Below, piece by piece: positions 46,532 through 62,841 of a DNA stretch of 64,000 bases (positions are counted from its first letter, which is position 1; each line of letters opens with the position of its first letter). The stretch comes from Rhodospirillales bacterium (GTDB taxonomy: Bacteria; Pseudomonadota; Alphaproteobacteria; UBA828). Both the position numbers and the translations under genes were made by a program. Below the pieces are notes generated by a model. That model ran no database searches. It worked only from the letters and a program-made list of their open reading frames with translations, and had not been told where the DNA came from. The stretch spans positions 31,119-95,118 of the forward strand of contig JAPPMY010000192.1 in NCBI GenBank assembly GCA_028818855.1. Reading direction: 5' to 3'.

Positions 46532-48943
46532 TTGCGGCTTCGCACGCTCGACCGATCGCGTGCCCCGCGTGCCGACCCGCTTCGTCTAGGACCGTCGGGC
46601 TCCACGCAGGCCATGGCTGAGAAGGCGCCGCCGCTCGCCGATGCGCGACGCGGCATCCTGACGAAGACCACCCCCGCCGAGCGTGGCGCGATCGACCTGC
46701 CGGCGCTGACGCCGCATCTCGAGTACCGCCCGATCGGCGACGACGAGGTGCTTCTGGTATCGGACTCCTTCAACACGTTGCTGCGCGGCCGGATTCACTG
46801 TGACCTCCTGCCGCTGCTCGACGGCGGGCGCTTGCAGGACGAGATCGTCGCCGCGCTCGCCGGCACCTACGCGGCCGCCGATGTGCGCCGCGCGCTCGCG
46901 TCGCTGGTGTCGCGGGGCTATGTCGTCTCCGGCGCGCACGCGATGGAGCGGAGCCGGGCGGCTTACTGGTCCGCGCTCGGCGCCTCGCCGCGCTTTGCTG
47001 AGGAGCGGCTGGGCGCGGCCGGGGTGGCGATCGAGGGCGACGACGGCCGCCTCGCCCGGCTGCTCGCCGCCATGGGCGTCGCCACGGGCCGAGACGACCC
47101 GGCCCTCTCCGTCACGGTCTGCGCCGACTATCTGGAGGAGCGGCACGAGGCGCTCAACCGGCGCCATATCGCCGCCTGCGCGCCCTGGATGCTGGTCCGG
47201 CCCAGGGGCACGCAGCCCCTCTTCGGCCCCGTGTTCCGGCCGGCGGAGAACGGCCCGTGCTGGGCCTGCCTCGCCTATCGCCTGCAGGGCCACCGGGAGG
47301 TCCACACTTTCCTGCGCAACCGCGGCGGCGAGGAAGCGGCCTTCGTGCCCTTCGCCGCGGAGCCTGCGGTCCTCGATGCGGTCTGCGGCATCGCCGCCGC
47401 CGAGATCGCCAAATGGCTGGTGCTCGACGCCGCGGCTCCGCTCCACGAACGGGCGATCTCGCTGGACGTCGCGCGCCTCAGGTGCGAGCACCACCCGGCG
47501 ACGCGCCGGCCGCAATGCCCCGCCTGCGGCGACGCCGCACTCTACCGCGCCGACCGGCCGGCGCAGCCGGTGCGGCTGCAGCCGAGCCCTAAGGCCACGC
47601 GCAACAGCGGCGGCGTGCGTGCGGTCTCGCCGGAAGAGACCCTCGCCACCTATCGCCACCTGATCAGCCCCGTCAGCGGGATCGTGACCTGGGTCGCGCG
47701 CACCACCGACGAGACCGACCCGTGGCTGCACGTTCACTGGGCGGGCAGCAATCTGGCGCTGCGAATCAAGAGCCTGAGCTCGCTCAGGCGCAGCCTGCGG
47801 AGCAAGAGCGCCGGCAAGGGGAGCACGGCGGGGCAGTCCGAGGTGAGCGCGCTCTGCGAGGCGATCGAGCGCTACTCCAGCGCCTGCCACGGCGACGAGA
47901 TTCGCTGCCGGCGGCGCTTCTCGGACTTTCTGGCTGCCGGAGAGGCGGCGGCGATCCACCCCAACGACGTGCAGCTCTTCAGCGAACGCCAGCTGGACCA
48001 CGCGGACGAGATCAACGCGCGCGGCCATCCCTACAACGTTGTGCCCCCCCGTTTCGATGCGGAGAGGGAGACGGACTGGTCGCCGGTGTGGTCGCTGAGC
48101 GAGGACCGGCAGCGCTACCTGCCGACGGCCATGCTCTACGGCATGACGCCGGAGCAGCGCGGGCCTGCGGGCCTCTGGGCGGATTCCAACGGCTGCTCCG
48201 CCGGCAACACGCTGGAGGAAGCGATCCTTCAGGGGTTCTTCGAGCTGGTCGAGCGCGATGCCTTCGCCGTCTGGTGGTACAACCGGCTGCGCCTGCCGGG
48301 CGTGGACCTGGAGAGCTTCGGCGACGACTATCTCGCTTCCGCCCGGGATTACTACGCGGGCCACGAGCGCGACATGTGGGTGCTGGACGTGACCGGCGAT
48401 CTCGGCATCCCCGCCTTCGTCGCGCTCTCGCGCCGCAGCGATGGCGGGACCGAGGACATCATCTACGGCGCCGGCGCCCACACCGACCCCCATATCGCCG
48501 CCTTGCGCGCGGTGTGCGAGATGAACCAGTGCCTGACCTGGGTCCCGCGCCCGGGCGACGGCGACGCGCGCTACGAGGTGGACGATCCCATGTGCCTCCG
48601 GTGGTGGAAGACCGGCACGCTCACCGACAACCCTCATCTGGCGCCGGCGCCCGGCGCCGCCCTGCGCGGCGCGGCGGACTATCCCGTTCCCGATACAGAG
48701 GACATGCGGGAGGACGTCGAGCGCTGCCGCGCCCTGGTCGAGGCCAGGGGCATGGAGTTCCTGGTGCTGGACCAGACGCGGCCCGACATCGGCATGCCGG
48801 TGGTGCGGGTCATCGTGCCGGGCCTGCGCCACTTCTGGGGGCGCTTCGCGCCGGGGCGCCTCTACGACGTGCCGGTCGCGCTGGGCTGGCGCGAGTGCCC
48901 GCTCGCAGAGGCCGACCTCAACCCCGTCCCGGTCATCGCGTGA
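46532..48943 (+). CDS. fused E1-like (SagC/docking-type) + YcaO cyclodehydratase (TOMM-type azoline synthetase)
   Basis: TTG at 46532 lies 4-5 nt after AGGAGGA; an alternative ATG is at 46613. The N-terminal half is cyclodehydratase-docking-like (…LEYRPIGDDEVLLVSDSFNTLLRG…CPACGD). The C-terminal half has YcaO hallmarks SAGKGSTAGQSEVSALCEAIERYS, …NGCSAGNTLEEAILQGFFELVERDA… and a Pro-rich C-terminus DLNPVPVIA. Confidence 0.85.
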   Translation: MRLRTLDRSRAPRADPLRLGPSGSTQAMAEKAPPLADARRGILTKTTPAERGAIDLPALTPHLEYRPIGDDEVLLVSDSFNTLLRGRIHCDLLPLLDGGRLQDEIVAALAGTYAAADVRRALASLVSRGYVVSGAHAMERSRAAYWSALGASPRFAEERLGAAGVAIEGDDGRLARLLAAMGVATGRDDPALSVTVCADYLEERHEALNRRHIAACAPWMLVRPRGTQPLFGPVFRPAENGPCWACLAYRLQGHREVHTFLRNRGGEEAAFVPFAAEPAVLDAVCGIAAAEIAKWLVLDAAAPLHERAISLDVARLRCEHHPATRRPQCPACGDAALYRADRPAQPVRLQPSPKATRNSGGVRAVSPEETLATYRHLISPVSGIVTWVARTTDETDPWLHVHWAGSNLALRIKSLSSLRRSLRSKSAGKGSTAGQSEVSALCEAIERYSSACHGDEIRCRRRFSDFLAAGEAAAIHPNDVQLFSERQLDHADEINARGHPYNVVPPRFDAERETDWSPVWSLSEDRQRYLPTAMLYGMTPEQRGPAGLWADSNGCSAGNTLEEAILQGFFELVERDAFAVWWYNRLRLPGVDLESFGDDYLASARDYYAGHERDMWVLDVTGDLGIPAFVALSRRSDGGTEDIIYGAGAHTDPHIAALRAVCEMNQCLTWVPRPGDGDARYEVDDPMCLRWWKTGTLTDNPHLAPAPGAALRGAADYPVPDTEDMREDVERCRALVEARGMEFLVLDQTRPDIGMPVVRVIVPGLRHFWGRFAPGRLYDVPVALGWRECPLAEADLNPVPVIA

Positions 48944-48952
48944 GGGAGCACC

Positions 48953-50167
48953 ATGAACCTTGAGCAGCAACGGGCCGCCAGCGAGGCGCTTCTCGCGCAA
49001 GAGGCGGACTCCCTTGGCGCGCTGCTGGCACAGCTCAGGGACCGCATCTCTCCCGTGCTGATCGGCGGCGCGCAATGGCGGGCGCTGCTGGATCGCGCTG
49101 GAGATCTGCCGCCGACCCTGGGCGCCTTTCCGTTCGGCTTCGAGCTGCCGCTGCACGAGGATAGGCCGGGGGCGGACCTTGGCGTCTCGGTGGTCGGCGG
49201 GACGCGAGCGGCGGCGTTCTACGAGGAACAGGGGCGATGCCAGGACGCGAACTCGACCGCGGCCGGCATCGCCCGGCTGCTTCACGAGACCGAGCCCGAG
49301 GACTCTCCGCTCCGCCAGGTCGTGGGCCGGAAGATGATGCTCGAATACGACGTGGAATCCGCGCCGGGCGGCACCCATCCGGACCCGGGCATCTTCCTGC
49401 GGCCGGCGGAGCGGCCGATCTTCGGTGACGGCGACAGCCGCCGGAGCCAAGACATCGGCGTCGTGCTGGAGGCGATCGTTTCAGCCGCCGGATGGCAAAC
49501 CGATAGCGCCGAGCGGCGCGTGATCGAGCAGGTACACCGGGCGCAAGGGAGGGGCGTTCGGATCGAGTCCTTCGGCGTGTTTCCCGCGCGCGAGCGTGCG
49601 ATCCGACTGGCGGTAACGGGCTTTCGCACCTCGCGCGACGTCGTGGCGTTTCTGGAAAGCGCCGGCTGGTCGGGGTCGCATTCGCGCGCCGGCGCCGCCG
49701 TGTCGCGATTCGAGGACCGCAACGCCTTCGTCAGCACGGGGGTCCATTTCGATGTCCATGCCGACGGCCTGGGCCCGACGCTGGGCCTGAGCTTCCTTGC
49801 CAAGGAGCGTGTGGCGAACGACCCCCGCTACTGGGTGGACAGCCCCCGTCTGTGGGCGCCGTTCCTGGACGGCTTGCGCGAGGGTGGTCTTGCCGTTCCG
49901 GACAAGCTGTCGGCGCTGGCCGGCTGGTCGTCGGGCGTCGAAACCCTGTTCGGCGCGGGCGGCCCGTACGTGCTCATGCGGGGCATTCACCACGTCAAGC
50001 TCGTGCTCGGCGGCGACCGCATCGAGCAGGTCAAGGGCTATGTCTACTTTCTCATCTGCGCCTGGCCGCAGGGTGGGCAATCCGCCACACGTAGCCGCGC
50101 GGGCGTTGCGACGCGTTTCGTACCTGGTCCTATCCGGGCTTCGCGCCGGACACGAGGTGATAGGTGA
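48953..50167 (+). CDS. hypothetical protein (404 aa), second gene of the YcaO operon
   Basis: ORF track. It starts 7 nt after the YcaO stop. The 3' end overlaps the convergent MT2 gene by ~38 nt. I recognise no family motif. Confidence 0.6.
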   Translation: MNLEQQRAASEALLAQEADSLGALLAQLRDRISPVLIGGAQWRALLDRAGDLPPTLGAFPFGFELPLHEDRPGADLGVSVVGGTRAAAFYEEQGRCQDANSTAAGIARLLHETEPEDSPLRQVVGRKMMLEYDVESAPGGTHPDPGIFLRPAERPIFGDGDSRRSQDIGVVLEAIVSAAGWQTDSAERRVIEQVHRAQGRGVRIESFGVFPARERAIRLAVTGFRTSRDVVAFLESAGWSGSHSRAGAAVSRFEDRNAFVSTGVHFDVHADGLGPTLGLSFLAKERVANDPRYWVDSPRLWAPFLDGLREGGLAVPDKLSALAGWSSGVETLFGAGGPYVLMRGIHHVKLVLGGDRIEQVKGYVYFLICAWPQGGQSATRSRAGVATRFVPGPIRASRRTRGDR

Positions 50168-50996
50168 ACACGCCTTCCCGCAAGCCCTGATCGTAGTTGA
50201 CCGTCGCCTCCATGAACTCCTGGGATGCACTGTTCACCCCGCCCGACGGCGACGTCAGAAAGGTGAACAGCAGCCACCCCTTGCTGATCCGCTCCGTGGA
50301 CGCCGCCGCTTCGGTGGAAAGGTCCTGCTCCTTGATTCCTTCGAATCCCGCCTCCTCCATGGTCGCGAGCACGTCGCGCCACGGTTCCAGCGGCAGCATG
50401 CGCCAGCCCCGCTGCGCGATGGCGTGAGCCTCTTCCTGGGCCTCTGACAGCGGCGCGCCGCTCCGCAGCCCTTCCAGTGCCTGCCAGCGGCCCCCCGGCT
50501 TGAGCACACGGTGCACGCCCTGCAGGTAGGCGAGCTTGTCCGGCGCATAGCAGAACGATTCGTGGTTTAGCACCGTGTCGAAGCAAGCGTCGAGGAAGGG
50601 CAAGTCCATGAAGTCGCCGTAGCGGAACTCGACCAGGTCGCCGACCCCGCGCCGTTGCGCGTGCTCCGTCGCCACGGCGACATGAGGCTCGCAGATGGTC
50701 ATACCGGTGACGTGAACGCCGTATTGCTCCGCCAGCCAGATCGCCGTGCCGCCGACGCCGCAACCGGCATCCAGGAAGCGACGGCCGGGCTCGAGGGCGC
50801 ACCCCTGCACCAGCGTGCGGTTGGCGCGAACCAGGGCTTCCTGGTCGGTTGTCGTGTCCGGCCCCCACAGGCCGAAGTGACAGGCCAGGAGATCGCCGCC
50901 GAACTTCTCCATCCGCTCGGTCAGCGCGGCGTAGTGCTCGGCGACGGAGGTTTCCGTCTCCGCGTCGCTCTCGGGCAGTTGCTGCGCGCTGCTCAT
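50130..50996 (-). CDS. class I SAM-dependent methyltransferase (MT2)
   Basis: ATG at residue 23 of ORF 50130..51062 forms an ATGA overlap with the FAD-oxidase stop. Motif I FLDAGCGVGGTAIWL; …FLDACFDTVLNHESFCY…VLKPGGRW. Confidence 0.85.
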   Translation of the reverse strand: MSSAQQLPESDAETETSVAEHYAALTERMEKFGGDLLACHFGLWGPDTTTDQEALVRANRTLVQGCALEPGRRFLDAGCGVGGTAIWLAEQYGVHVTGMTICEPHVAVATEHAQRRGVGDLVEFRYGDFMDLPFLDACFDTVLNHESFCYAPDKLAYLQGVHRVLKPGGRWQALEGLRSGAPLSEAQEEAHAIAQRGWRMLPLEPWRDVLATMEEAGFEGIKEQDLSTEAAASTERISKGWLLFTFLTSPSGGVNSASQEFMEATVNYDQGLREGVFTYHLVSGAKPG

Positions 50997-52300
50997 GGAC
51001 CTTCTCCGAATGGCATGCCTTGCGCTCGGAACACCCGACCGGGATCGAACGCCTCCTTCCACCCCAGCCCCGTCTCGAAGGCCTCGCCGTAGTGTTGCTC
51101 CCAGTCCGTGCGCCCGTATCCCACGTGGCCGGAGAGATAGCTCTTTCCGCCGAGGTCGACGAGCGTTCTGCCGATCTCCCGCAGCCTTCCGGCCAGCTCG
51201 TCTGCCCTGGCGTGGTCATCCAGCACGGCGAGGATCGAGTACGAGAGCATGCGCTCTCCCGTCGGATGCATGAAGAGCGGGGCATCGAGCGCATCGGTCC
51301 TGATCGGGTATACCCCGGTCCAGCTGCGCGGCGAGCGCGGCACCCATTGCGGGTCCAGCCACGGCTGGAGGAGGAGCGTTCGCAGCGTCTCCCAGGGCAT
51401 GAACCAGTCGCGCCACGGGTGGAAATTCGTCGACGCGAAGCCGGTCTTCGGAAACATCTGGGCGTGCCCGACTTCGGTCGTGTCCCAGACGATCGCCATC
51501 CGGTCGTATCCCAGCCCGTGGAGCACCCGATCGTGGTCGATCATCTCGTCGTACTCGACCCCGGCGCGAAGAATGAACCGCTTGTCGTGGGAGCGGCTCT
51601 CCGCCCGCAGGTGGTCGAAACGGCCATCGTCGACGACCTGCTCCAGGTCGCGCGCGAAGCGATCGACATCGTAGTAGCGAAGCTCGTACTGCCGGATGCG
51701 CTTGCCAGCCCTGCGCAGCCTGATCCACGCCTCGGTGATGATGCCGAACTGTCCCTGCCCGCCCCTCACGGCATCGAACAGGCCGCTGTTCCGGGTGGAC
51801 GAGCAGCGCACGCGCTCGCCGCTGCCGGTCACCACGTCGAGCTGCTCGACCTGCCCGATCTGCATCCCGTAGCGATGCGAGGTGGACCCCAGCCCGCCGG
51901 CCGAGAGCGTTCCGCCCACGGTCACCTCTGCGATGTCCGCCAGCACCCGCGGCAGCCGCCCGGTCCCGTGCAGGGCGTCCACGACGCTCCCCCACAGCGC
52001 GCCGCCTTGCGCGCGCACCAGCTCCCGCCCCAGGGGCTGGACCCGGTCGAGCCGCATCGTGTCGAGCACCAGGTCGCCGTCGGTGAGGCATTGGCCGCCC
52101 TGGGAGTGCCCGCCCCCGCGAACGGCCAGGCGGATGCCGTCCCGCGCGGCCATGCGGACGATGCGCGCCACCTCCCCGGCGCTTTCCGGCATGGCCACCG
52201 CGTCCGGCGCTTGCCGCCGCATTCGGCTGAAGTCGTACGACCGTGCCTCACGGTCCTCCCGGTTCGTGCTCAGGCGCGGCACGAGGCCCTGCTCGGTCAT
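50993..52300 (-). CDS. FAD-binding PCMH-type oxidoreductase (FAD_binding_4, cytokinin-dehydrogenase-like C-terminus)
   Basis: PDAVAMPESAGEVARIVRMAARDGIRLAVRGGGHSQGGQCLTDGDLVLDTMRLDRV is the FAD_binding_4 core. 435 aa. Confidence 0.85.
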   Translation of the reverse strand: MTEQGLVPRLSTNREDREARSYDFSRMRRQAPDAVAMPESAGEVARIVRMAARDGIRLAVRGGGHSQGGQCLTDGDLVLDTMRLDRVQPLGRELVRAQGGALWGSVVDALHGTGRLPRVLADIAEVTVGGTLSAGGLGSTSHRYGMQIGQVEQLDVVTGSGERVRCSSTRNSGLFDAVRGGQGQFGIITEAWIRLRRAGKRIRQYELRYYDVDRFARDLEQVVDDGRFDHLRAESRSHDKRFILRAGVEYDEMIDHDRVLHGLGYDRMAIVWDTTEVGHAQMFPKTGFASTNFHPWRDWFMPWETLRTLLLQPWLDPQWVPRSPRSWTGVYPIRTDALDAPLFMHPTGERMLSYSILAVLDDHARADELAGRLREIGRTLVDLGGKSYLSGHVGYGRTDWEQHYGEAFETGLGWKEAFDPGRVFRAQGMPFGEGP

Positions 52301-52334
52301 CCCTGGCCGGACGCCTCCGATTCCGGCGCTTCGC

Positions 52335-54713
52335 TCAATCGGACCGGTCGACGGCTACCGCAGTCGCGCCTCGCGCGGACCCGGTGCGCCGGTCCGTGGC
52401 CATCAGCAGAGGCGGCAGGATCAGGAGGTCGGCGGCAAGCGCGAAGGCGATGATCAGCGCCGTGAGCAGGCCGACCTGCGCGGTGGGAATGAACGGGGAC
52501 GCCAGCAGGATCAGGAAGCCCGCAACCAGCACGGCGGTGGTCGTGAACACCGCGCGGCCCACGGTCTCGAACGCGTAGCGCACCGCCTCGTCCGGCGCGT
52601 AGCCGTGCTCGCGCCGCGCACGCCGGTACTTGCTGAGGAAGTGCACCGTGTCGTCCACGACGATTCCGATCGTCATGGCCACCACCACCGACAGCGAGGT
52701 GCCGACCTCTCCCACCGCCAGCCCCCAGATGCCGAAACCGATCACGGCGGGGACGAAATTGGGCACGAGGCTTATCAGGCCGAGCCTGAGCGAGCGGAAC
52801 GCGATGAGGAGAAGCAGGGAAATGCCGCCCAGCACGATCATGGTACCGATCAGCATCGCCCGTATGTTGCGTTGCCCGATATGCGCGAACAGCAGGGCGG
52901 GCCCCGAGCCCTCGGCGCTCACGATGTGCGGCGTGTTGCCCTCCAGCCACGCCTCCGCCCGCGCGTTCAGATCCAGCACCTCGGCCGACGACAGGGTCTT
53001 CGCCGTCACAGTCACGCGTGTTGCCGACTTGTCGATATCGATCCGGTTGTTGAGATCGAGGCCGAAGGGAAGCGAGAGCTCGTAAAGCAGCAGGTACTGC
53101 GACGCGAGATCGTGCTCTTCGGGCAGGTTGTAGGCCTCCGGATCGTCGCCGTGCATGGTCTTGTTGAGCTGCCGGAAGGTATCGGTGATGACCGTGACGT
53201 GCCGCGTTTCTGGCTGGGCCCGGTACCAATCCGCGAAGGCCGACACGTCTGCGAGGAAGGCGGGGTTGCTGACTTCGCCGGGCCCGGCCGAGGCGAGCGA
53301 GTATTCCAGCACGGTGTTCCCGCTCAGGTGCTTGTCCAGGAAATCCGTGTCCTGGCGAAACTCGACGCTCTCGTCGAAGAAGTGCACCAGAACGTCGTTC
53401 AGGTCGTTGCGCGGGACGGCCGCCGCCATCGCGGCCACGACCACCGCCGAGCCGAGCAGCAGCACCCAGCGCCGGCGCACCACGAACTCCGCGATTTGCC
53501 CCATGAGCCGGTCTTCGCGGCTGACGGCCTTCGGCGGGCGCGCCGGCATCAGCGAGAGCGCTGCCGGCAGGAAGGTCACCGTGAGCAGGAACGAGGCGAT
53601 GATGCCGAAGGCGACGAAGGTGCCGAGGTGACGGTGCGGCGGCACCTCGGAGAAGTTCATGGCGAGGAAGCCCAGCGTCGTGGTCAGGCTCGCCAGGAAG
53701 ACCGGATAGAGATTGACCCGGACCGATTCGACGATGGCCTCATTCTTCGTGTCGCCTGCCTGGAGGCGCTGCTGAATCGTCACCACCAGGTGGACGCAGT
53801 TGGCCACGACGATCATCAGCACGATGGTGGGCGCCGGCGCCGTGGGCGCGGACAGCGGCAGGCCGGCCCAGCCGCCCAGCCCCATCGCGACCACCATGGA
53901 GGAGCAGATGACGCTCCCGGTCGCCATCACGCCGGAGAAGGTCCGCGTGAGAAGGCCGAAGATCAGCGCCATGATCGCCATGCTCACCGGCAGGAAGATC
54001 ATCTGACTGTCGACCGACGCCTCGGTGAAGACGTGGTTGACCATCACCGTCCCGACCAGCCGGACGTCGATGCCGGCGAAGCGCTCCTCCGTCTCGGCAG
54101 CGAGGCTGCGCGAGAATTCGGCGATTTCGGGGATCGTGACGGTCTGGTCCTCTTCAGGCAGCTCGATGGTGACGTTGACCGCGCTCACGCCACCGTCGCG
54201 GGCCAGGACGTTGCCGGCGAGCCGCGGGTCCGCCAGGGCGATAGCGCGGATGCGGGAGCGTTCCTCCGCATCGCCCACGGCCGTCGGATCCACGAGGTCG
54301 CGCACGACCAGGTCGTCGCCGTCCGCCATCGTGTGCTGGAAGTTCGCGATGGAATCGACGCGCCGCGAATAGGGCGTCTCCCACGCGCGCTCGGTCAGCC
54401 AGATCGCGGCCTCAAGCGCCTGTTCCGACGTGGCGTCGCCATCGTCGGGAACGATCATGAAGAGGACGTTGTGGCTCTTGCCGTAGGTGTCTTCCAGCGA
54501 TTCGAGCGCGATCAGCTCGGGATTGTCCTCGCTGAAGAAGATGCGGTAATCGGTGGAGAACTTGAGAAACAGGCCGCCGGCCGCGAACAGGATGACCAGG
54601 GCCATCGAGCCGGCGATGATCGGCCAGCGATACGCGACCACCCACTCGGCGTATCGCGTCTCAAAGGGCCGCGCCGCGCTAGGGGAGGTGTCTGCCATCG
54701 ACGAAGCCGCCAT
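52335..54713 (-). CDS. MMPL/RND-superfamily exporter (792 aa)
   Basis: Two 6-TM bundles each follow a large periplasmic loop. The family-like N-terminus is …YRWPIIAGSMALVILFAAGGLFLKFSTDYRIFFSEDNPEL…. An alternative ATG is at 54698. Confidence 0.85.
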   Translation of the reverse strand: MAASSMADTSPSAARPFETRYAEWVVAYRWPIIAGSMALVILFAAGGLFLKFSTDYRIFFSEDNPELIALESLEDTYGKSHNVLFMIVPDDGDATSEQALEAAIWLTERAWETPYSRRVDSIANFQHTMADGDDLVVRDLVDPTAVGDAEERSRIRAIALADPRLAGNVLARDGGVSAVNVTIELPEEDQTVTIPEIAEFSRSLAAETEERFAGIDVRLVGTVMVNHVFTEASVDSQMIFLPVSMAIMALIFGLLTRTFSGVMATGSVICSSMVVAMGLGGWAGLPLSAPTAPAPTIVLMIVVANCVHLVVTIQQRLQAGDTKNEAIVESVRVNLYPVFLASLTTTLGFLAMNFSEVPPHRHLGTFVAFGIIASFLLTVTFLPAALSLMPARPPKAVSREDRLMGQIAEFVVRRRWVLLLGSAVVVAAMAAAVPRNDLNDVLVHFFDESVEFRQDTDFLDKHLSGNTVLEYSLASAGPGEVSNPAFLADVSAFADWYRAQPETRHVTVITDTFRQLNKTMHGDDPEAYNLPEEHDLASQYLLLYELSLPFGLDLNNRIDIDKSATRVTVTAKTLSSAEVLDLNARAEAWLEGNTPHIVSAEGSGPALLFAHIGQRNIRAMLIGTMIVLGGISLLLLIAFRSLRLGLISLVPNFVPAVIGFGIWGLAVGEVGTSLSVVVAMTIGIVVDDTVHFLSKYRRARREHGYAPDEAVRYAFETVGRAVFTTTAVLVAGFLILLASPFIPTAQVGLLTALIIAFALAADLLILPPLLMATDRRTGSARGATAVAVDRSD

Positions 54714-54911
54714 GTAGCAGCGCCAGGGGCGGTCTCGGAAAACCGCCCCTGTTCAGCCTATGGCGTGGCAGCCGCGCAGAAAACCAGACCATGATCCGCA
54801 ACCAACAGTCTCCAGGCGCGGGAAGGCGCTATTCACGCCCCCACGCCGGGAGACACCGCATATCATCGGTTCGGTCCGGGCCGCGCGAGCCCGTGGCCGG
54901 GCCCGTCTCGT

Positions 54912-55166
54912 TCAGAGGCCGCAGCAGCAGAGGCCCGCGGAGATCGCCTCGAGCTGCTCTTCGTTCAACTGCGCCTGAGGCGGCAGCGCCAGATGGACGG
55001 TCTGCATGTCGCTCTCGTGCACCTGGATCTCGATGTTGTCGGGGATCGTAATGCCGAATTCCTCGTGCATGACGCCCTTGGGATCCGACACGAGCCGGCT
55101 CCGGAACTCGGAATCCTCGACCGCCTTCTCCGTGAGATGGACGCGAATCTCTTCTGCAGACTTCAT
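54912..55166 (-). CDS. NHLP (nitrile-hydratase-like leader peptide) family RiPP precursor, 84 aa; predicted core LCCCGL
   Basis: ATG at residue 27 of ORF 54912..55244, 9 nt after GGAGGA. The leader MKSAEEIRVHLTEKAVEDSEFRSRLVSDPKGVMHEEFGITIPDNIEIQVHESDMQTVHLALPP fits the NHLP pattern. It ends in LNEEQLEAISAG (double-Gly-type site), followed by LCCCGL and the stop. Confidence 0.85.
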   Translation of the reverse strand: MKSAEEIRVHLTEKAVEDSEFRSRLVSDPKGVMHEEFGITIPDNIEIQVHESDMQTVHLALPPQAQLNEEQLEAISAGLCCCGL

Positions 55167-55560
55167 GGCCTTAGTTCCTCCATCGTGAGTCTCGGGGCAT
55201 GTAAGCGAGGCAGCGTTCGGCCGCGCTATGCCGACCTGTTCCACGTCTTATTGAAAGGAGCATCCCGAATCCAGAATTTTTTTTGTTGGGTCGGTATAAG
55301 AAAAGCATATGACCCCCCTGAAAAGGTCCAACCATTCCCTAATGGGCCGGCGCGGCGACATCGCCTTCGATCGGGGCTTCGAACCCGCGAGGGCCCGGTC
55401 GCCGCAGGGGATGTGGCGCCTCGCGACCATGCCGGCGCCGGTGACAGAAGCGGTCGAGGCGGGTATAGCAGACTGTCGTGACTCTCGTCGGGTCGGGCGT
55501 ACAGCCTGACCGCAGAGCGGCTGGAGACCGGCCGCACACGGCCAGAATGGACTGCAACCG

Positions 55561-56451
55561 GTGTTCACCAACCCGTTTCGAGACGAAGCCGCCGCCAGCC
55601 GGAACGAGCGCCAGCAGCTCGATCACTTGCTGCGCATCACCGCGCCCCACGAACGCATCATCCTGGTCGGCATCGCAGTGGTGTTGGTGGGGTTCGTGGC
55701 GTGGGCCTTTTTCGGCAGCATAGAGCGTGGCGTCACCCTCGACGGGGTCCTGATCGAGCCTGGCGCCCGTCACGAGGCGATCTCGTCCGAACCCGGCCAC
55801 CTCGTGGAGTTTCTGGTCTCTCCCGGGGACCGCGTCGCGGCCGGGGAGCCGATCGCACGGCAGACGGTTCCCGAGCTGGACCGCGAGGAGGCTGCCCTGC
55901 TCGAACGGGTTGCCCTGCTCGAGACGGAAGCCAGAGAGGCTGGCGCGGACAGCGATGCCTTGCGCCCTCTGCTGGACCAGGCACGCTCTGCATTGCTGCA
56001 GATGGAGGCGCGCCGCAGCGCGAGGGCGGCCATCGTCAGCACGAGCGGCGGCCAGATCGCGGCCCTCGGCGCCGCGCCCGGGGACTACCTGCCGGCGGGG
56101 ACGGCCGTCGCCCTGCTGCGCGAGGCGGCGGATGCGCCGCCCGAGGCAGTGCTGCGGGTTGCACCGGACGACGCGCAGCGCATCCGGCCGGGCATGCGGG
56201 CGTCGGTCAAGGTGGAGACAACCGAGGGCGAGCTGCGTCGGCTGGAGGGAACGGTCGCATCCGTCGCCGCCGGGCCGGTGCCGCGCTGGCTAGCGCCGTT
56301 GCTGCCGGCGGCGGCAGAACCCGGGCATCGGGTCGCAATCGCCCTCGACGAGGCGCCCGCCCCTGCCGTGCCGGACGGCACGCCCTGCCGGGTCCGTATC
56401 GAGCTCGGCCGGGACGCGCCGGCCGCGCTGCTCGCCCTCGGGCCATCCTGA
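55561..56451 (+). CDS. HlyD-family secretion adaptor (NHLP bacteriocin system type)
   Basis: GTG start per the ORF track. The N-terminus FTNPFRDEAAASRNERQQLDHLLRITAPHERIILVGIAVVLVGFVAWAFFG fits the lFR.eAl…LD.ll.vt.p pattern. Coiled-coil middle region. Its stop abuts the next ATG. Confidence 0.8.
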   Translation: MFTNPFRDEAAASRNERQQLDHLLRITAPHERIILVGIAVVLVGFVAWAFFGSIERGVTLDGVLIEPGARHEAISSEPGHLVEFLVSPGDRVAAGEPIARQTVPELDREEAALLERVALLETEAREAGADSDALRPLLDQARSALLQMEARRSARAAIVSTSGGQIAALGAAPGDYLPAGTAVALLREAADAPPEAVLRVAPDDAQRIRPGMRASVKVETTEGELRRLEGTVASVAAGPVPRWLAPLLPAAAEPGHRVAIALDEAPAPAVPDGTPCRVRIELGRDAPAALLALGPS

Positions 56452-58674
56452 ATGCTCCGGCGCGGCGCGAAAGGGCCGGCGGACGCGGATAAGAAGCCGA
56501 CGGCGGAGCCCGTGAAGCGGCGCGTGACCACGCCGCTCCTGCTGCAGATGCACGCGACCGAGTGCGGCGCCGCGTGCCTCGGCAGCGTGCTTGCCTTCTT
56601 CGGGCGCTGGGTGCCGCTCACCGAGCTGCGCGTCAAGTGCGAGGTCAGCCGGGACGGCTCCAGCGCCGCCGGCATCGCGCGGGCAGCCAGGCATTTCGGC
56701 CTCGAGTGCTCCGGCCGCAGCGTGACCCTGAACCAGCTCAGGAAACTGCCGCTGCCACTCATCCTGTTCTGGGACTTCAACCACTTCCTCATTCTGGAAG
56801 GGTTCGATCGCAATCGGTTCTATCTCAACGATCCGTCCACGGGCCGCCGGTCGCTCTCCGAGAAGGAGTTCAGCCAGGGGTTCACCGGGGTCGCGCTGCA
56901 ATTCAAGCCCGGTCCGGACTTCGAGCGCGGCGGCGCGCGCCCCAACATCCTGCAACGGCTCCCGTTCTGGCTCGGCGGCACCGGGGGCACGCTGGCCTAC
57001 ACGGTCGCGTGCGGCTTGATGCTGGCCATCCTGGCGCTGGCGACGCCGGCGCTGCTCGCCATCTTCGTGGACCGCGTGCTGGGGGAGAACGAGCCCTGGA
57101 CGGCGCTCGTGGCCGGCACCATGGTTGCCGCCGCCGCTCTCGTGTACGGCCTTACCTGGCTCAAGAGGCGTTGCCTGCAGCGCCTGTCCGTCAAGATTTC
57201 GGTAACGGCCGGGAATCGCTGCATGTCCCAGCTGCTGCGATTGCCGGTGGATTTCTTCAGTCACCGGCTGGTCGGCGAGCTGACGGGGCGCGTGCTGTCC
57301 GTCGACAGGATCGCCAAGGGTGTCTCCGAGCACTTACTGTCGCTCCTGATCGAAGTCGTGATGAGCGTGGTGTTTCTGGCCGCCATGCTCGCCTTCGATC
57401 CAGTCCTGGGATTGATCGTGTTGGGCCTTGCGGTGGTGAACGGGGCGCTCGTGCGCATCCTCACGCGCATCCGCACCGACAAGAGCCATGCCCTGCGGCG
57501 CGAGCAGGGGCTCCTGGTGGGTGTCGGCACCCTGATGGTGCATCAGACGGACACCCTGCGGATGACCGCCTCCGACGATCGCTTCTTCAACCGCTGGAGC
57601 GGCCATCAGGCGCGCGAGCTGATCGCGCGCCAGCGCTTCGCCGAGATCGGTCACATCAACGCGGCATTGCCGGGCCTCTTCATGGTCCTGGGAAACGCGG
57701 CGGTGCTGACCTTCGGCGCGACCCAGGTCATGGCCGGCGAGCTGACCCTGGGCATGCTGGTGGGCTTCTACATCGTGGCGTCCATGTTCCTGGCGCCGGT
57801 GGCGCGCTTGGTCGAGTTCGCCGACGAGCGTCAGGCGCTCGAGGCCGACATGCAGCGCCTCGACGACATCACGAAGAGCCCGGACGAAGCGGGAGCGGAC
57901 GAGCGGCCGCCGTCTTCGGACGCCATCGCCACGTTCAACGGCCGGCTGCAACTGGCCGGCCGGGTGGAACTGCGCGACGTGACCTTCGGCTACAACCGGG
58001 CGCGCCCGCCGCTAATCAAGGACTTCAGCTTGACCATCAAGCCGGGGCAGCGGGTCGCGGTGGTGGGCCCCAGCGGATCCGGCAAGTCGACGGTGTCGCG
58101 CCTGGTTTCCGGCATCTACGAGCCCTGGTCCGGCGACATCCTGTTCGACGGCTCCCCGCGCGACGACATTCCCGGCGACGTTCTATCGCGCTCGCTCTCG
58201 ATGGTGGATCAGCACGTCTCCCTCTTCTCCGCGACCGTGCGCGACAACATCACCTTGTGGAATCCCTCGGTCCCCGACGACAGCGTGGTCGCCGCGGCCA
58301 GGGACGCCTGCATCCACGACGAAATCCTCAGCCGGCCGCTGGGCTACGCGACGCCGGTGGACGAGGACGGGGGCAACTTCAGCGGCGGCCAGCGGCAACG
58401 GCTGGAGATCGCCCGTGCGCTGGTGGGCAACCCGACGGTGCTGGTCCTGGACGAGGCCACTAGCGCGCTCGATGCCGCGACAGAGGAGCGCGTCGACGAT
58501 GCGCTGCGGCGGCGGGGGGTGAGCTGCCTGATCGTCGCGCACCGGCTGAGCACGATCCGGGACTGCGACCAGATCATCGTTCTCGACAAGGGCGAGGAAG
58601 TGCAGCGCGGCACCCACGACGAACTGATGGCGGACGAAGCCGGCGCCTACTACCGGCTCGTCAAGGCGGGCTGA
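56452..58674 (+). CDS. bacteriocin-type ABC exporter with N-terminal C39 peptidase domain (peptidase/permease/ATPase)
   Basis: C39 domain LLQMHATECGAACLGSVL (catalytic Cys) … FWDFNHFLILEG (His). Six TM segments. Walker A GPSGSGKST, signature FSGGQRQRLEIARAL and Walker B VLVLDEATSALD. Confidence 0.9.
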   Translation: MLRRGAKGPADADKKPTAEPVKRRVTTPLLLQMHATECGAACLGSVLAFFGRWVPLTELRVKCEVSRDGSSAAGIARAARHFGLECSGRSVTLNQLRKLPLPLILFWDFNHFLILEGFDRNRFYLNDPSTGRRSLSEKEFSQGFTGVALQFKPGPDFERGGARPNILQRLPFWLGGTGGTLAYTVACGLMLAILALATPALLAIFVDRVLGENEPWTALVAGTMVAAAALVYGLTWLKRRCLQRLSVKISVTAGNRCMSQLLRLPVDFFSHRLVGELTGRVLSVDRIAKGVSEHLLSLLIEVVMSVVFLAAMLAFDPVLGLIVLGLAVVNGALVRILTRIRTDKSHALRREQGLLVGVGTLMVHQTDTLRMTASDDRFFNRWSGHQARELIARQRFAEIGHINAALPGLFMVLGNAAVLTFGATQVMAGELTLGMLVGFYIVASMFLAPVARLVEFADERQALEADMQRLDDITKSPDEAGADERPPSSDAIATFNGRLQLAGRVELRDVTFGYNRARPPLIKDFSLTIKPGQRVAVVGPSGSGKSTVSRLVSGIYEPWSGDILFDGSPRDDIPGDVLSRSLSMVDQHVSLFSATVRDNITLWNPSVPDDSVVAAARDACIHDEILSRPLGYATPVDEDGGNFSGGQRQRLEIARALVGNPTVLVLDEATSALDAATEERVDDALRRRGVSCLIVAHRLSTIRDCDQIIVLDKGEEVQRGTHDELMADEAGAYYRLVKAG

Positions 58675-58678
58675 CCCG

Positions 58679-61600
58679 ATGGCGACGGCGGAACCCGGCG
58701 CGCTCGCCCGGCTCGCAGCCGAGGCCGGGACGCCCGTGCCCTGCGCCGGCAATCTGCCGCTTGACATGGGCGATCCGCAGTTTGCCTGGTTCGTCGACGA
58801 GGGCGCAGTGGACCTCTTCCTCGTCGAGTATCGGGAGGGGGTCGAGCATGCGGCGCCGCAACACCTGCTGCGCGCCGATTCCGGCCGCCTGCTGCCGGGT
58901 GTCGCGCCGCAGGCTGAGCACACCACGCTCCGCCTGATCGCAAAGGGATTGCCGGGCACCGTGCTGCGGCGCCTCCCGGTCGCGAGCCTCGATGCGGTCG
59001 ACAGCACAGAACTGGCGGCGCACGTGGATGCGTGGATCATGGACATGTCTGCCATGCTCGTCCGCGACGTCGCGAACTCCCCGCGCGCGGAAATCTTCAT
59101 CGAGCCGGGCGAGGCGCCCGCGGCGAGCAGCGGCACGCTCGCAGCCCGGCGGGGCGTAGTGTGGGTGACGGTGGCGAAGGGCACGGGACTCTTTCTCGGT
59201 CTCATCGATGCGGTGGAGAGCAGTGTGGACGGCGGGGCCGCGCCGGCCGATATCCCGCTCACGACGATGACTTGGCTCGCGCTGTCGGAAGCGCTGCTAC
59301 TTTCCGCCCGATCCTCCGAGACGCTCGCCGAGGAGGGCAAGCTGCTTCCCGCCCTCGCGGGCTTCCATGAAGTGGCGTTCGACCTGGAACGGCTCAACCG
59401 CAGCCTTGCGGTCGTCGACCAGGCGAACCTGGAACGCGCACGCGCGACCAACCGCCGCGCCGACGAGGACAACGCGCGGCATCGCCTGTTCAACCTCTAT
59501 GGCCTGGCCAGAGACGTGGAAGCCGGGGCCGGCGATACGGCGCTGCGCGACGCGCTGCGAACGATTGGGCGCCACGAGGGGATCGATTTCAAGTGGCCGG
59601 CGGTGACGGAGGCGTCCGATCCCGTCGCCCTCCTCGGCGATGTCCTGGATGCCTCCGGTGTGCGCGCCCGCCGCGTGCGCCTCGCCCGGGACGACAGGTG
59701 GTGGATCGGCAATTCCGGTGCGATGCTGGCGTTCCGAGAAGACGACGGGCGCCCCGTGGCGCTGCTGCCGGGCGTGCTGGGCCGCTACCGGGAGGTCGAT
59801 CCCCGCGACGGGCGCAGCAAACGCATCACGGCCAGGCGCGCCGAATCGCTCCGCACCGAGGCGTGGTTGTTCTATCAGCCGCTCACGGCCGCGAGCGCCG
59901 GATTGCGGGATCTGTTCCGGCTCGCGCAAAAGGGGCTCGGCGTCGAGGTCGCGCGCTTCGTCGCGGCCGGGCTTCTGGGCGGTCTCGTCATGCTCTTGCC
60001 GGCCATCGTGCTCGGTTTCGTCGCGGACGACGTCATCCCGGGCGGCGAAGCCGGCCCGCTGTACGCGGTGACCGCCGTGCTGGTCGCGGTCGCCCTGATT
60101 GGGGCGCTGCTGCACGTCCTGCAGGGATTCGCCCTGATGCGGATCGAGGGACGGGTTGCGTCGCGGGCCGAAGCCGCGTTCTGGGATCGTCTGCTCCGGC
60201 TCCCTCCGAGCTTTCTCCATCGCTATCCGGCCGGCGATCTCGCCATGCGGGGCATGACCTTCCAGAACCTGCGCGACGCCGTGCACGGCGTAGTTGCCAA
60301 CGCCGTGCTCTCGGTCGCCTTCCTGCTGCCCGCATTCATCCTCATCGTCTTCTACGACGCGACGCTGGCCGGCATCGCCGCAGCCTTCGGCCTGGTTTCC
60401 CTGATCGTGACGGTGGCCCTCGGTCTCAGGCAGATCCCGCCGCACGGCATCGTGTTGCGTGCCACGCATCGCCTGGCCGGCCGGCTCTTCCAACTCATCA
60501 ACGGCATTTCCACGCTCCGCGTCGAGGGCGCCGAAGGCTCGGCGTTCGCGGTCTGGGCGCGGGACTATCGCGACCAGAAGCATGCGGAGCTGCAACGCGG
60601 CGCCTTCGAAGGGCATCTGCAGGCGCTCAGCGCCGCGCTGCCGCTGGTGGCGGGCGCCGTGCTGCTCGTCGCCGTGACGCTGCCGGACGACAGGACGATC
60701 GCGATCGGCGACTTCCTCGTGGTCTACACCATGTTCATGGTGTTTCAGGCAGCGGTGGCGCGGCTCGGCGCATCGTTCGGCGCCGTCGCGGCCATCATGC
60801 CGGCGCTGGATCAGGTCCGGCCGTTGCTCGCCGAAGCCCCGGAGACGAGCGCCGAGGGAGAACCCGTGGAGACGCTGGGCGGCGACATCGCCTTCGACCA
60901 CGTCAGCTTTCGCTACAACCCCGACGGGCCGCTGATCCTCGATGACGTCTCGATTCGCGCGCGCCCCGGCGAGTTCGTCGCCATCGCCGGTGAATCGGGA
61001 GCCGGCAAGAGCACGCTGTTCCGCCTTGCCCTCGGCCTGGACGAGCCGTCCGGCGGCGCGGTGTATTACGACGGCCGCGACCTCAGGCACCTCAACGTCA
61101 AGCAGGTGCGCCGGCGCATCGGCGCGGTGCCGCAGGCCGTGCAGCTGCACCCGGAAGACGTGTGGGACAACATCGTCGGCGACCACGAGGACGCGACCGA
61201 GGAGGATGCCTGGCGGGCCGCCCGGCTCGCGGCTGTCGACAAGGAGATAGCGGCGATGCCCATGGGGATGCTGACCTGCGTGGGCGCCAGCGCCAGCGTC
61301 ACCTCGGGAGGCGAGAGCCAGCGCATCGTCATCGCCCACGCGCTGCTGCGCAACCCCCGCATCCTGCTGCTGGACGAGGCGACGAATTGGCTCGACAACG
61401 ACAGCCAAGCCAGGGTCATGCAGAACCTGGGCCAGCTAACGTCGACGCGGATCGTCATCGCCCACCGCCTCTCCACGCTGCGCCAGGCGGATCGCATCTA
61501 CGTGATGCAGGCCGGAAGGGTGGTCGACGAAGGGTCCTATGCGGATCTGGTCGAGCGCGAGGGCGTCTTTCGAAATCTGGTTCGCCGGCAGCTAGTCTGA
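58679..61600 (+). CDS. second ABC exporter subunit (permease/ATPase) with a long N-terminal cNMP-binding-like region, NHLP export-system type
   Basis: 973 aa. N-terminal FAWFVDEGAVDLFLVEYREG…. TM domain. Walker A GESGAGKST, a degenerate signature TSGGESQRIVIAHAL and Walker B ILLLDEATNWLD. Confidence 0.85.
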   Translation: MATAEPGALARLAAEAGTPVPCAGNLPLDMGDPQFAWFVDEGAVDLFLVEYREGVEHAAPQHLLRADSGRLLPGVAPQAEHTTLRLIAKGLPGTVLRRLPVASLDAVDSTELAAHVDAWIMDMSAMLVRDVANSPRAEIFIEPGEAPAASSGTLAARRGVVWVTVAKGTGLFLGLIDAVESSVDGGAAPADIPLTTMTWLALSEALLLSARSSETLAEEGKLLPALAGFHEVAFDLERLNRSLAVVDQANLERARATNRRADEDNARHRLFNLYGLARDVEAGAGDTALRDALRTIGRHEGIDFKWPAVTEASDPVALLGDVLDASGVRARRVRLARDDRWWIGNSGAMLAFREDDGRPVALLPGVLGRYREVDPRDGRSKRITARRAESLRTEAWLFYQPLTAASAGLRDLFRLAQKGLGVEVARFVAAGLLGGLVMLLPAIVLGFVADDVIPGGEAGPLYAVTAVLVAVALIGALLHVLQGFALMRIEGRVASRAEAAFWDRLLRLPPSFLHRYPAGDLAMRGMTFQNLRDAVHGVVANAVLSVAFLLPAFILIVFYDATLAGIAAAFGLVSLIVTVALGLRQIPPHGIVLRATHRLAGRLFQLINGISTLRVEGAEGSAFAVWARDYRDQKHAELQRGAFEGHLQALSAALPLVAGAVLLVAVTLPDDRTIAIGDFLVVYTMFMVFQAAVARLGASFGAVAAIMPALDQVRPLLAEAPETSAEGEPVETLGGDIAFDHVSFRYNPDGPLILDDVSIRARPGEFVAIAGESGAGKSTLFRLALGLDEPSGGAVYYDGRDLRHLNVKQVRRRIGAVPQAVQLHPEDVWDNIVGDHEDATEEDAWRAARLAAVDKEIAAMPMGMLTCVGASASVTSGGESQRIVIAHALLRNPRILLLDEATNWLDNDSQARVMQNLGQLTSTRIVIAHRLSTLRQADRIYVMQAGRVVDEGSYADLVEREGVFRNLVRRQLV

Positions 61601-61649
61601 CCGGCCACCGGGCACGCGTGAGATTGGACCGGCGTCGGACACGAGCCCG

Positions 61650-61719
61650 CGTTCGGGTCTGGAGAAGTGCCGCATGCATGATTGCGACCCTGCTTGATCG
61701 TCTTACCCACCGTTGCTAG
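61650..61719 (+). pseudogene. IS21-family IstB helper ATPase fragment, cut off at the repeat boundary (approximate)
   Basis: The frame of ORF 61162..61719 ends …VWRSAACMIATLLDRLTHRC*. The LDRLtHrc motif normally continues (HI.e.g.eSyR…). Here TAG (61717-61719) belongs to the first bases of repeat copy B. Confidence 0.4.
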
Positions 61720-62184
61720 CCCGGATTTCAGATATCGGCAACTTGGCTCAGTTCCATAGTGCATTGCAATAAAACAGTAAATCGCCTTCGTTTGGGAGTC
61801 CAGGAACGCGTGTTGCAGGACCGGTCACCAAATCGAATTCGATGTTTTTTAGTGTGTCGACGATCACGGGCTCCAAGTGGCGGCAGATGACCGTCTTCGC
61901 ACCTGTCGGCAACTTTCGTGCGGTCGCGCGGGGCGACGGCGATGAGGCCGGCACGTGTCCACCCCGTCCAGGGTAAAGCCGGGCAGGGAACGGGCGGCTC
62001 ACCGGGAGGCGCCATCGCCCGCAAAGCGACCGGATTGGCCCGCTGACGAGTGTCGGTCGTACCGTGGCGAACGGGGCTACTCTACCGTATCGGGCTTCGT
62101 TTCCAATCCCTCCGGAGTTGCCAGACCCACAATTGGCCGTTCCAGCGATCGGTCAGGATGCGCGGACGAGCTTGAGGTGGTCGG
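61715..62184 (+). repeat. Unclassified ~470-bp non-coding element, copy B (right flank of the RiPP island)
   Basis: Ungapped alignment to 41221-41690 in the same orientation. The conserved block 62042-62120 includes the hairpin CCGTGGCGAACGG. Confidence 0.7.
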
Positions 62185-62418
62185 AGAGCGCTCCTGTTCA
62201 ACGATGCGACCTCTCGGGGAATCTGCGGGCTACGCGGGATGCCTACTCTCGAGCGGTCCTCGGTTGCGATGGCGTAACCGGGCCGATGTCCCCTCAGGCC
62301 TGGGGAGAGAGGTCGGCTCCGGAGTCGTGGATTGCGATCGGTGATCGCGATCGTTTCCCGACGATTGCGAAGCCGCGCCGGCAGAGGTCTCGGCTGATGC
62401 AGCCTTCGGCTGTCAGCG

Positions 62419-62745: not shown

Positions 62746-62841
62746 ATGCATGCGGTTCGAGGTATCTCGCTTTATAAATTGTAATGTGCGCGGTGCGACG
62801 GACTACTGTCCATGAAAAATGGTTGCGTAACGACGTGGAAA

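Follow-up and report, generated by a model that had tools for sequence, protein, structure and literature searches.

A bromination-free srp-type proteusin locus with a Leu-Cys-Cys-Cys-Gly-Leu precursor core in a Rhodospirillales genome

The gene at positions 54912-55166 on the minus strand of a 64-kb stretch of DNA from a Rhodospirillales bacterium (the window, i.e., the whole stretch that was analyzed) ends in the codons for Leu-Cys-Cys-Cys-Gly-Leu, directly after an Ala-Gly pair. The question it raises is whether so small a triple-cysteine core is a new kind of peptide, and what its neighboring genes would make of it. A preliminary description of the locus had proposed a six-residue core cut off after Ala-Gly and had taken its shortness as unusual. 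The core is short and real, but it is not of a new kind: it belongs to the published srp family, and short cores of this family have been in the literature since 2021. In detail, the gene is held with good confidence to be an SrpE-family proteusin precursor inside a complete srp-type cluster for a peptide that is made by ribosomes and modified post-translationally (RiPP), which would be cyclized, tailored, and exported as set out below.

The translation of 54912-55166 is MKSAEEIRVHLTEKAVEDSEFRSRLVSDPKGVMHEEFGITIPDNIEIQVHESDMQTVHLALPPQAQLNEEQLEAISAGLCCCGL followed by a stop, a peptide of 84 amino acids (aa) which begins with MKSAEE and ends with QLNEEQLEAISAGLCCCGL. Its C-terminus consists of LNEEQLEAISAG and then LCCCGL, with the boundary after Ala-Gly; residues 1-78 form the leader and residues 79-84 the core. 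The final minus-strand codons are ctc tgc tgc tgc ggc ctc tga, and the three TGC codons of Cys80-82 appear as GCAGCAGCA on the plus strand (54921-54929). Leu at -12, Leu at -7, Ile at -4, Ala at -2, and Gly at -1 complete the leader end. All of this agrees with the preliminary description, which had read the same last codons, the same cysteine positions, and the same hydrophobic residues. A GGAGGA Shine-Dalgarno sequence is located 9 nt 5′ of the ATG. A longer, GTG-initiated open reading frame (ORF, to 55244) is without homolog support, and the homologs all begin at the MKSAEE/MQSAEE position.

The precursor matches the NCBIfam model of the NHLP leader, TIGR03793, with 68.2 bits (cutoff 50.9) and PF02979 with 40.3 bits (cutoff 27.2). 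Residues 5-78 correspond to positions 3-77 of the 77 positions of TIGR03793, and the end of the model falls on Gly78. This alignment with the NHLP family, which had been suggested as a check, places the predicted boundary after Gly78. The leader also contains an L(X)4L motif, LNEEQL, at -12 to -7 (L67...L72), within the heptapeptide QLNEEQL of residues 66-72. An identical precursor is present on seven public metagenome contigs, one of which (103.8 kb) carries the same cluster with protein identities of 95-100%. A search for further copies had been suggested: none was found by tblastn in the 64-kb window, where this precursor is the single case of CCC near a stop inside a recognizable gene. A scan of 185,579 species genomes recovered 389 related loci.

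The srp gene clusters, with the precursor SrpE, the YcaO enzyme SrpC, and the Trp-6-brominase SrpI, are said to have been presented by Nguyen et al. in JACS in 2021. They encode a sponge-derived RiPP of the proteusin class. The SrpE core is LCCCW, its three cysteines are turned into thiazolines by SrpC, its C-terminal Trp is 6-brominated by the leader-dependent flavin halogenase SrpI, and the modified core is excised by LahT150 (PMC10858898; PMC10286304). The L(X)4L motif of SrpE, NLTEEQL at residues 66-72, is the docking site of the halogenase (PMC10858898). SrpC is poorly behaved in Escherichia coli and gives partly modified product mixtures (PMC10286304). Both the compound finally made in nature and what it does are described in the literature as cryptic.

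In common with srp, the window has an NHLP leader of equal length and register, with the L(X)4L motif at 67-72 and AG before the core, and a core that starts with L-C-C-C. Its fused YcaO gene (46532-48943, plus strand) is orthologous as well. Identity of the product to its counterparts across the loci is 61-79%; with the YcaOs of LCCCW/halogenase loci, which stood in for the published SrpC sequence in this comparison, it is 61-72% along ~770 aa. The neighbors are also shared, namely a hypothetical protein beside the YcaO gene, an AlkB-like fusion, a C39 ATP-binding cassette (ABC) exporter with a second ABC protein (ABC2), and a resistance-nodulation-division (RND) pump. The relatives, from many phyla, are probably in the main metagenome-assembled genomes (MAGs) of sponge symbionts. 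On the other side, the window core ends in Gly-Leu and not in Trp, the halogenase and an NHLP-cyclase fusion of the LCCCW loci are missing, and two methyltransferases and a FAD (flavin adenine dinucleotide) oxidase resembling cytokinin dehydrogenase (CKX) are present, which the LCCCW-only loci lack. The leader identity to the latter is about 59-63%.

Related clusters have been surveyed repeatedly. According to a preprint, a single precursor gene of ~252 bp dominates the transcription of such clusters in sponge metatranscriptomes, and 191 closely related precursors occur across phyla, 116 beside YcaO genes and 66 beside halogenases (bioRxiv 10.1101/2023.06.09.544420). A 2025 survey describes sponge proteusin clusters as made up of a pair of transporters, a YcaO gene, a precursor, and a number of unknown genes, the precursors sharing an "LCCC" motif with diverse ends (PMC11832590). 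The window agrees with this picture of a conserved LCCC and diverse ends, which recurs in a 2022 report (PMC9426513) and in the preprint; the accessible portions of these surveys hold no biochemical or functional dissection, no link between tail and tailoring genes, and no fold for the unknown genes. The Mpr proteusins (MprE/MprC/MprD) and nostatin A are also similar in their NHLP-leader-guided YcaO heterocyclization of core Cys/Ser, and MprC/MprD process an LCCCW core grafted on the Mpr leader too (PMC10286304). These systems differ from the window in their longer cores and in an azoline oxidase of their own (MprD). At the YcaO step one leader cannot stand in for another: MprC is not supported by the SrpE leader.

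A search of 5.8 billion proteins gave 556 relatives of the precursor. The best 120, those listed, are nearly all of 83-91 aa and 60-98% identical to the window precursor. The AG/LCCC junction is kept, with small variations, in 120/120 of these listed homologs and is followed by a tail of 0-2 residues. Among them the endings after AG include LCCCGI (63) and LCCCW (16), and further LCCCGV/L/A/F, WCCCG[NTS], LSCCL, LCCC[LFVM], LCCCG, and LCCC. An alignment of 25 precursor sequences shows G78, C81, and C82 as invariant and L79 as nearly invariant. AG (rarely SG) is near-invariant, and the residues after it are the only hypervariable part. Serine, which is also heterocyclizable, is the sole recurrent substitute for a core cysteine (LSCC variants). 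The strings LCCCGI, LCCCGL, LCCCGV, GLCCCW, AGLCCC, and LCCCG returned only unrelated matches in the full-text literature, so the variant is unnamed in searchable text.

The best 80 of the 389 loci were taken into a comparison in which all ORFs of these loci and of the window (81 in total) were clustered and tabulated by core type. These best 80 are all MAGs, many of them named or binned as sponge symbionts (Poriferihabitaceae, Porisulfidus, SB06xx, COS/RHO), and they are distributed over Alpha- and Gammaproteobacteria, Nitrospirota, Thermodesulfobacteriota, Acidobacteriota, Binatia, Latescibacterota, and Gemmatimonadota; the protein search added Nitrospinae. The leader of the window is 69-77% identical to those of LCCCG[IV] loci, against 59-63% for LCCCW loci. 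Several loci hold two precursors with different tails a few kb apart: MCCCGI and LCCCW occur together in seven (L026, L034-L037, L040, and L041), WCCCGN and LCCCW in L012, and LCCCGI and LCCCW in L038. The subtypes can thus coexist, perhaps sharing the YcaO enzyme and its partner.

The tail of the core and the tailoring genes vary together. The Trp halogenase (PF04820) is found in 0/19 LCCCGx loci (the window included) versus 15/32 LCCCW-only loci, and a fusion of an NHLP domain with a squalene-hopene-cyclase-like part in 0/19 versus 21/32. The reverse applies to the methyltransferases (14/19 versus 1/32) and the FAD oxidase (12/19 versus 1/32). Since contig ends and the 10-kb flank partly explain absences, the fractions are to be read as minimum values. 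L038 is the one LCCCW locus in which methyltransferases and oxidase occur; it also holds an LCCCGI precursor and has its halogenase beside its LCCCW precursor. Halogenase and NHLP-cyclase fusion are restricted to loci with a Trp-ending core, the methyltransferases are also found with the LCCC, L[CS]CC-x, and WCCCG-x types, and the oxidase also with LCCCF and LCCCL. In the 64-kb window, a tblastn search with a PF04820 query from an LCCCW locus found no halogenase.

Because of this co-variation and of the absence of a halogenase from the window, the locus is a bromination-free srp subtype, in which tail residues and tailoring genes have been exchanged together. It is an uncharacterized srp variant rather than a plain member of the family, since the C-terminal Trp and SrpI are missing and a consistent alternative tailoring set takes their place. 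Few biosynthetic loci of sponge microbiomes are as widespread and as highly transcribed as the srp clusters, and published work has centered on the LCCCW brominase. From the subtypes and their enzyme sets, predictions can be drawn for the chemistry still missing, with exact masses and enzyme-substrate pairs that can be tested.

Some further traits go with particular subtypes. The NHLP-cyclase fusion is a protein of ~445-460 aa (e.g., L012:1366-2700, plus strand) with orthologs in 27 LCCCW-holding loci; its N-terminus matches PF02979 with 26.5 bits, just under the cutoff, and its C-terminal part, an alpha/alpha-toroid, matches PF13243 with 26.8 bits. It is confined to loci with Trp-ending cores, and the window lacks it. 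LolA-like (PF17131) and DUF1302-like outer-membrane proteins stand beside the RND pump in many LCCCW/MCCCGI loci (e.g., L063:10460-11344, L060:7469-8773, and their orthologs) and not in the subtype of the window. The MCCCGI loci have genes for a UbiA prenyltransferase, an MFS protein, and an MpaB/Lcp-like oxygenase nearby. The idea that the CKX-like oxidase trims the Gly-X tail to a C-terminal amide was rejected as a general one, for the oxidase also accompanies the Gly-less LCCCF and LCCCL cores (L017 and L018).

The route from gene to product would be as follows. The 84-aa precursor would be translated from what may be an abundant transcript, as transcription of such clusters in sponges is highest for relatives of this gene (bioRxiv 10.1101/2023.06.09.544420). 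Its structured NHLP leader and the L(X)4L motif (L67...L72) would recruit the fused enzyme, which combines a winged helix resembling a RiPP recognition element (RRE), an E1-like part, and the YcaO domain. With ATP, this enzyme would cyclodehydrate Cys80, Cys81, and Cys82 to three contiguous thiazolines, by analogy with the LCCCW homolog. Two class I S-adenosylmethionine (SAM)-dependent methyltransferases and the CKX-like oxidase would then act on the core in place of the Trp bromination, the best guesses being oxidation of thiazoline to thiazole or other C-H/C-N oxidation, and O-, N-, or S-methylation. The partner of the YcaO gene, a predicted prenyltransferase (PT)-barrel protein, and the AlkB-like fusion probably add or modify a hydrophobic group, as their fold and motifs suggest. 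A LahT-like C39 domain would cut after Ala77-Gly78, and the hydrophobic hexapeptide Leu-Thz-Thz-Thz-Gly-Leu ([M+H]+ 557.203 before further tailoring) would leave through the ABC/HlyD set and an HpnN-like RND pump. The calculated [M+H]+ of the core is 611.235 unmodified, 557.203 as tris-thiazoline, and 551.156 as tris-thiazole, with +14.016 for each methyl and +68.063 for each C5 prenyl group.

The conversion of the three adjacent cysteines to thiazoline rings is very likely, judged from the homologous system. The proposal in the preliminary description of a 6-aa core whose contiguous cysteines become thiazol(in)es gains support in the same way, from the fused YcaO neighbor and the SrpE/SrpC biochemistry. 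The YcaO product matches TIGR03882 (150 bits), TIGR03604 (266 bits), PF02624 (315 bits), and the winged helix PF21084. It comprises 803 aa from 46532, and its likely true start, taken from a 97%-identical relative, is at 46613 (776 aa).

Several points weigh against this scheme. The cyclodehydration of all three cysteines is extrapolated from a homolog with ~63% leader identity, and even the homolog SrpC gave partly modified mixtures on co-expression in E. coli (PMC10286304). Double-glycine sites do not usually have Ala at -2, and the cut after the AG of this leader is a predicted one. The cluster has no canonical SagB/McbC-type FMN (flavin mononucleotide) azoline dehydrogenase, and the thiazolines may or may not persist: no family match to such an enzyme was found among the cluster ORFs and none is conserved across the 80 loci, the sole oxidase being the FAD_binding_4 protein. 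The roles given to the methyltransferases, the FAD oxidase, the PT-barrel protein, and the AlkB-like fusion are read from family or fold only. Moreover, the founding JACS 2021 paper stood outside the comparison and may already annotate some of these genes.

The accessory genes common to all srp subtypes are the C39 ABC exporter set, the HpnN-like RND pump, the AlkB-like fusion, and the PT-barrel protein. The gene of the last one (48953-50167, plus strand; 404 aa), beside the YcaO gene, is present in 64/81 loci with all core types, and its 523 homologs are all unnamed and without Pfam domains. The AlphaFold2 model, built from 121 sequences, has a pLDDT of 91.4 and a pTM of 0.88 and is composed of five beta-beta hairpins alternating with alpha-alpha pairs. 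In a Foldseek search against the PDB, the top 50 matches were all ABBA prenyltransferases (probability 1.00, E 2e-6 to 1e-4, TM 0.4-0.55), such as EpzP, FamD1, PriB, IptA, AmbP3, NphB, TleC, DMATS, and PagF (hit 46). Conserved residues are enriched on the strands (46% versus 26% overall) and include E64, D75, K127, E131, R218, D267, R343, H346, H347, K349, K361, and Y363; such charged and aromatic residues on the barrel strands are what a site in the barrel interior would call for. At the sequence level, Pfam and NCBIfam gave no match, and PDB sequences searched by phmmer and by a profile of 121 sequences gave no prenyltransferase. Because these sequence searches gave only noise, the assignment is drawn from the predicted fold: the product is predicted to have an ABBA/PT-barrel (prenyltransferase-like) fold, which concerns the fold and not the activity.

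The accessible srp texts contain no mention of a prenyltransferase, the founding 2021 JACS paper being outside that search. The nearest precedent for a PT-barrel protein and methyltransferases acting on a mini-azoline peptide is offered by aeruginosamides and muscorides, which are short linear azole peptides of the cyanobactin type, and by plantazolicin. In these very short or linear peptides the azol(in)es are contiguous, and ABBA-type prenyltransferases and/or SAM methyltransferases cap the ends. They depend on non-NHLP leaders and on PatA/PatG-type proteases and not a C39 exporter, and come from other producers. The window protein has no sequence similarity to the cyanobactin F-type prenyltransferases beyond the fold.

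The end of the PT-barrel gene has a peculiarity. Compared with a public contig of 97% identity, the window has 2 bp inserted here (50085-50167), by which the stop codon is lost; this may reflect a genuine variant or a fault of the assembly. The extension adds ~25 residues which are disordered in the AlphaFold model, relatives having 379 aa, and the ORF end overlaps the methyltransferase gene MT2.

The AlkB-like fusion (43000-45432, plus strand; 810 aa) joins an AlkB-type membrane di-iron hydroxylase (PF00487) to a GlnE-like helical, nucleotidyltransferase-like part (PF03710), and is present in 47/81 loci. Its closest solved structure is the alkane 1-monooxygenase PDB 8f6t (E=1e-50), and all four His motifs (HE..H, EH..HH, NY.QHYG, and QRH.DHH) are invariant in 26 orthologs. 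The possibility that the GlnE-like part is an active adenylyltransferase was weakened, as its G-x-D-x-D region is not conserved in the same orthologs in which the AlkB motifs are invariant. The conserved accessory genes point to a hydrophobic, possibly lipid-like, exported product. Together with the co-variation of tail and tailoring, the shared PT-barrel and AlkB-like enzymes suggest that the cryptic srp products are more decorated than now described.

A wider scheme is offered tentatively and is more doubtful than not. The whole srp family would make a prenylated or lipid-decorated mini-azoline peptide instead of a plain tris-thiazoline one: the PT-barrel protein would alkylate the core, the AlkB-like enzyme would hydroxylate the terminal methyl of the added group or Leu79, and the HpnN-like RND pump, with LolA-like and outer-membrane partners in other loci, would deliver the product to the outer envelope. 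The tails would then be modular cassettes, one of Trp, brominase, and NHLP-cyclase fusion, and another, the uncharacterized one of the window, in which a Gly-aliphatic end (or an aliphatic one, or none) goes with a CKX-like oxidase and two methyltransferases.

A different product might be expected if not all cysteines were cyclized. At least one Cys thiol, the C-terminal carboxylate, or the freed N-terminus would be prenylated by the PT-barrel protein and then methylated to a lipopeptide anchored in the membrane, loosely as in CaaX or Rab CC(XX) processing, with the AlkB-like enzyme acting on the lipid tail and the RND pump moving the product to the outer membrane. The confident PT-barrel fold of the YcaO neighbor, with its conserved basic, acidic, and aromatic residues on the strands, is in line with this, as are the invariant His motifs of AlkB, the hopanoid-transporter-like pump adjoining the precursor, the LolA-like proteins of related loci, the match of MT2 to the thiopurine-S-methyltransferase (TPMT) family above the Pfam cutoff, and the partial modification by SrpC in E. 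coli (PMC10286304). On the contrary, published data place all three cysteines as thiazolines (PMC10858898; PMC10286304), the PT-barrel likeness is structural only (TM 0.4-0.55, ~10-18% identity, no sequence match to a solved prenyltransferase), and no prenyl-diphosphate synthase is conserved in the cluster across the 80 loci. The Ser that replaces the first Cys in some relatives also fits azoline formation better than S-alkylation. Lipidation instead of full cyclization is thus considered unlikely, and the tris-thiazoline core is preferred.

The preliminary description had also speculated on a metallophore, that is, an exported tris-thiazol(in)e/thiol peptide that chelates Cu, Zn, or Fe for the symbiont or its host, in the manner of thiazoline-rich siderophores and methanobactins. 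Contiguous thiazoline nitrogens and uncyclized thiols are plausible soft-metal ligands in general chemistry, and a cluster that occurs in at least eight phyla of sponge symbionts and is highly expressed according to the literature would fit a "public good." However, when the ORFs from the 80 loci were clustered, neither a TonB-dependent receptor nor a periplasmic binding protein, an importer, or a metal-responsive regulator proved to be conserved. The conserved transport genes are all exporters (C39-ABC, ABC2, HlyD, RND/MMPL, LolA-like, and DUF1302-like). Neither the annotated cluster ORFs nor the gene families shared by the 80 loci include dedicated uptake or receptor genes or MbnB/MbnC-type enzymes, and siderophore-type genes are likewise missing from the annotated cluster ORFs. 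In addition, a conserved metal site is not what the variable tails (W, GI, L, or none) and the tailoring by bromination or methylation would lead one to expect. With no uptake or receptor gene family conserved across the 80 loci, the speculation is left without support and a metallophore appears quite improbable.

The exporter set, which adjoins the precursor and is divergently transcribed, bears on the site of the cut. It includes an NHLP-system HlyD-type membrane fusion protein (55561-56451, plus strand; PF13437, and TIGR03794 as best match with 92.9 bits, below the cutoff), an NHLP-family C39 peptidase/permease/ATPase (56452-58674, plus strand; PF03412, and TIGR03796 with 891.6 bits, above the cutoff of 853.3), and a second NHLP bacteriocin export ABC permease/ATPase (58679-61600, plus strand; TIGR03797 as best match with 688 bits, just below the cutoff of 709). 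The C39 domain aligns to LahT150 (PDB 6MPZ) with E=1.5e-38 and conserved Cys, His, and Asp contexts. The catalytic Cys and His which the preliminary description had reported in this partner are present in the segments ATECGAACLG and FNHFLILEG. Its proposal of cleavage at Ala-Gly is likewise supported, as a prediction, by the end of the NHLP hidden Markov model and the conservation of AG/LCCC. Cleavage elsewhere, giving a longer mature peptide, or a retained leader with the modified protein as the product, could be argued from the Ala at -2 in place of Gly and from the lack of a cleavage experiment with an AG-ending SrpE-type leader in the accessible papers, but it is hardly credible given that the NHLP model ends at G78, that the -12/-7/-4 hydrophobics and the Gly at -1 fit the double-glycine consensus, that hypervariability begins only after the near-invariant AG (rarely SG), that the C39 transporter dedicated to the cluster is closely related to LahT, and that the literature takes LCCCW as the core (PMC10858898; PMC10286304).

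The srp-type cluster extends over ~43.0-61.6 kb of the window. On the minus strand, the precursor, the RND pump, the FAD oxidase, and MT2 look like a single operon. The pump (52335-54698), an HpnN-like MMPL/HAE3 RND transporter (TIGR00921, TIGR03480, PF03176, and a sterol-sensing domain), lies directly 3′ of the precursor, a place it also has in related loci. The FAD-linked (PCMH/VAO-type) oxidase (50993-52300) matches PF01565 (FAD_binding_4) with 102.8 bits, and its FAD domain, residues 5-225 only, is closest to cytokinin dehydrogenases (CKX E=1.5e-41) and then EncM (E=5e-25). The start of MT2 (50130-50996; 288 aa), the last gene of the operon, overlaps the stop of the oxidase by 4 nt; it matches class I methyltransferase families, the TPMT family with 28.7 bits among them. 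Its paralog MT1 (45446-46345, minus strand; 299 aa) was assigned by family matches and co-occurrence. It is specific to the subtypes without C-terminal Trp, and its closest solved structures are RebM-like 3bus, MitM, and a glucose O-methyltransferase.

Between the precursor and the RND gene, a structured intergenic RNA was predicted at 54714-54911 on the minus strand (202 nt, z=-4.37). A GC-rich stem-loop starts ~7 nt past the precursor stop; in the window, the first 80 nt taken alone are non-significant (z=+0.75). A stem-loop occupies the same position, 6-15 nt past the stop, in most of 12 related loci (from L001-L014, L046, and L050) with differing sequences; in several of them it is indistinguishable from shuffles (z from -5.3 to +0.75). 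It may act as an attenuator or as a transcript-stabilizing hairpin between the precursor and the pump. A sigma-70 scan around the precursor gave no promoter, the one terminator-like site was within chance expectation, and the tRNA and Rfam scans of the 64-kb window gave no matches.

The rest of the window encodes ordinary metabolism, i.e., hydantoinase/oxoprolinase, amidase, peptide ABC importers, acyl-CoA dehydrogenase, and CoA transferases. The GC content at third codon positions (GC3) is 0.80-0.91 in the cluster genes (43000-61600) and 0.93-0.97 in the upstream housekeeping genes (1-40000). Low-GC stretches without high-GC3 ORFs are located at 35500-37000 (0.59) and 41177-43000 (0.63); the latter is the left border of the cluster and holds an ORF (41906-42586) with a weak fibronectin-III match. 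At 61600-64000 the GC content falls from ~0.69 to 0.52-0.64 and no convincing genes are found. A 126-aa ORF at the right border (63605-63985, minus strand) has a weak match, far below the cutoff (26.8 bits), to the N-terminus of IS4-family transposases and may be the remnant of a mobile element. The lower GC3, the low-GC borders, the IS4-like fragment, and the spread over at least eight phyla fit a horizontal acquisition of the cluster.

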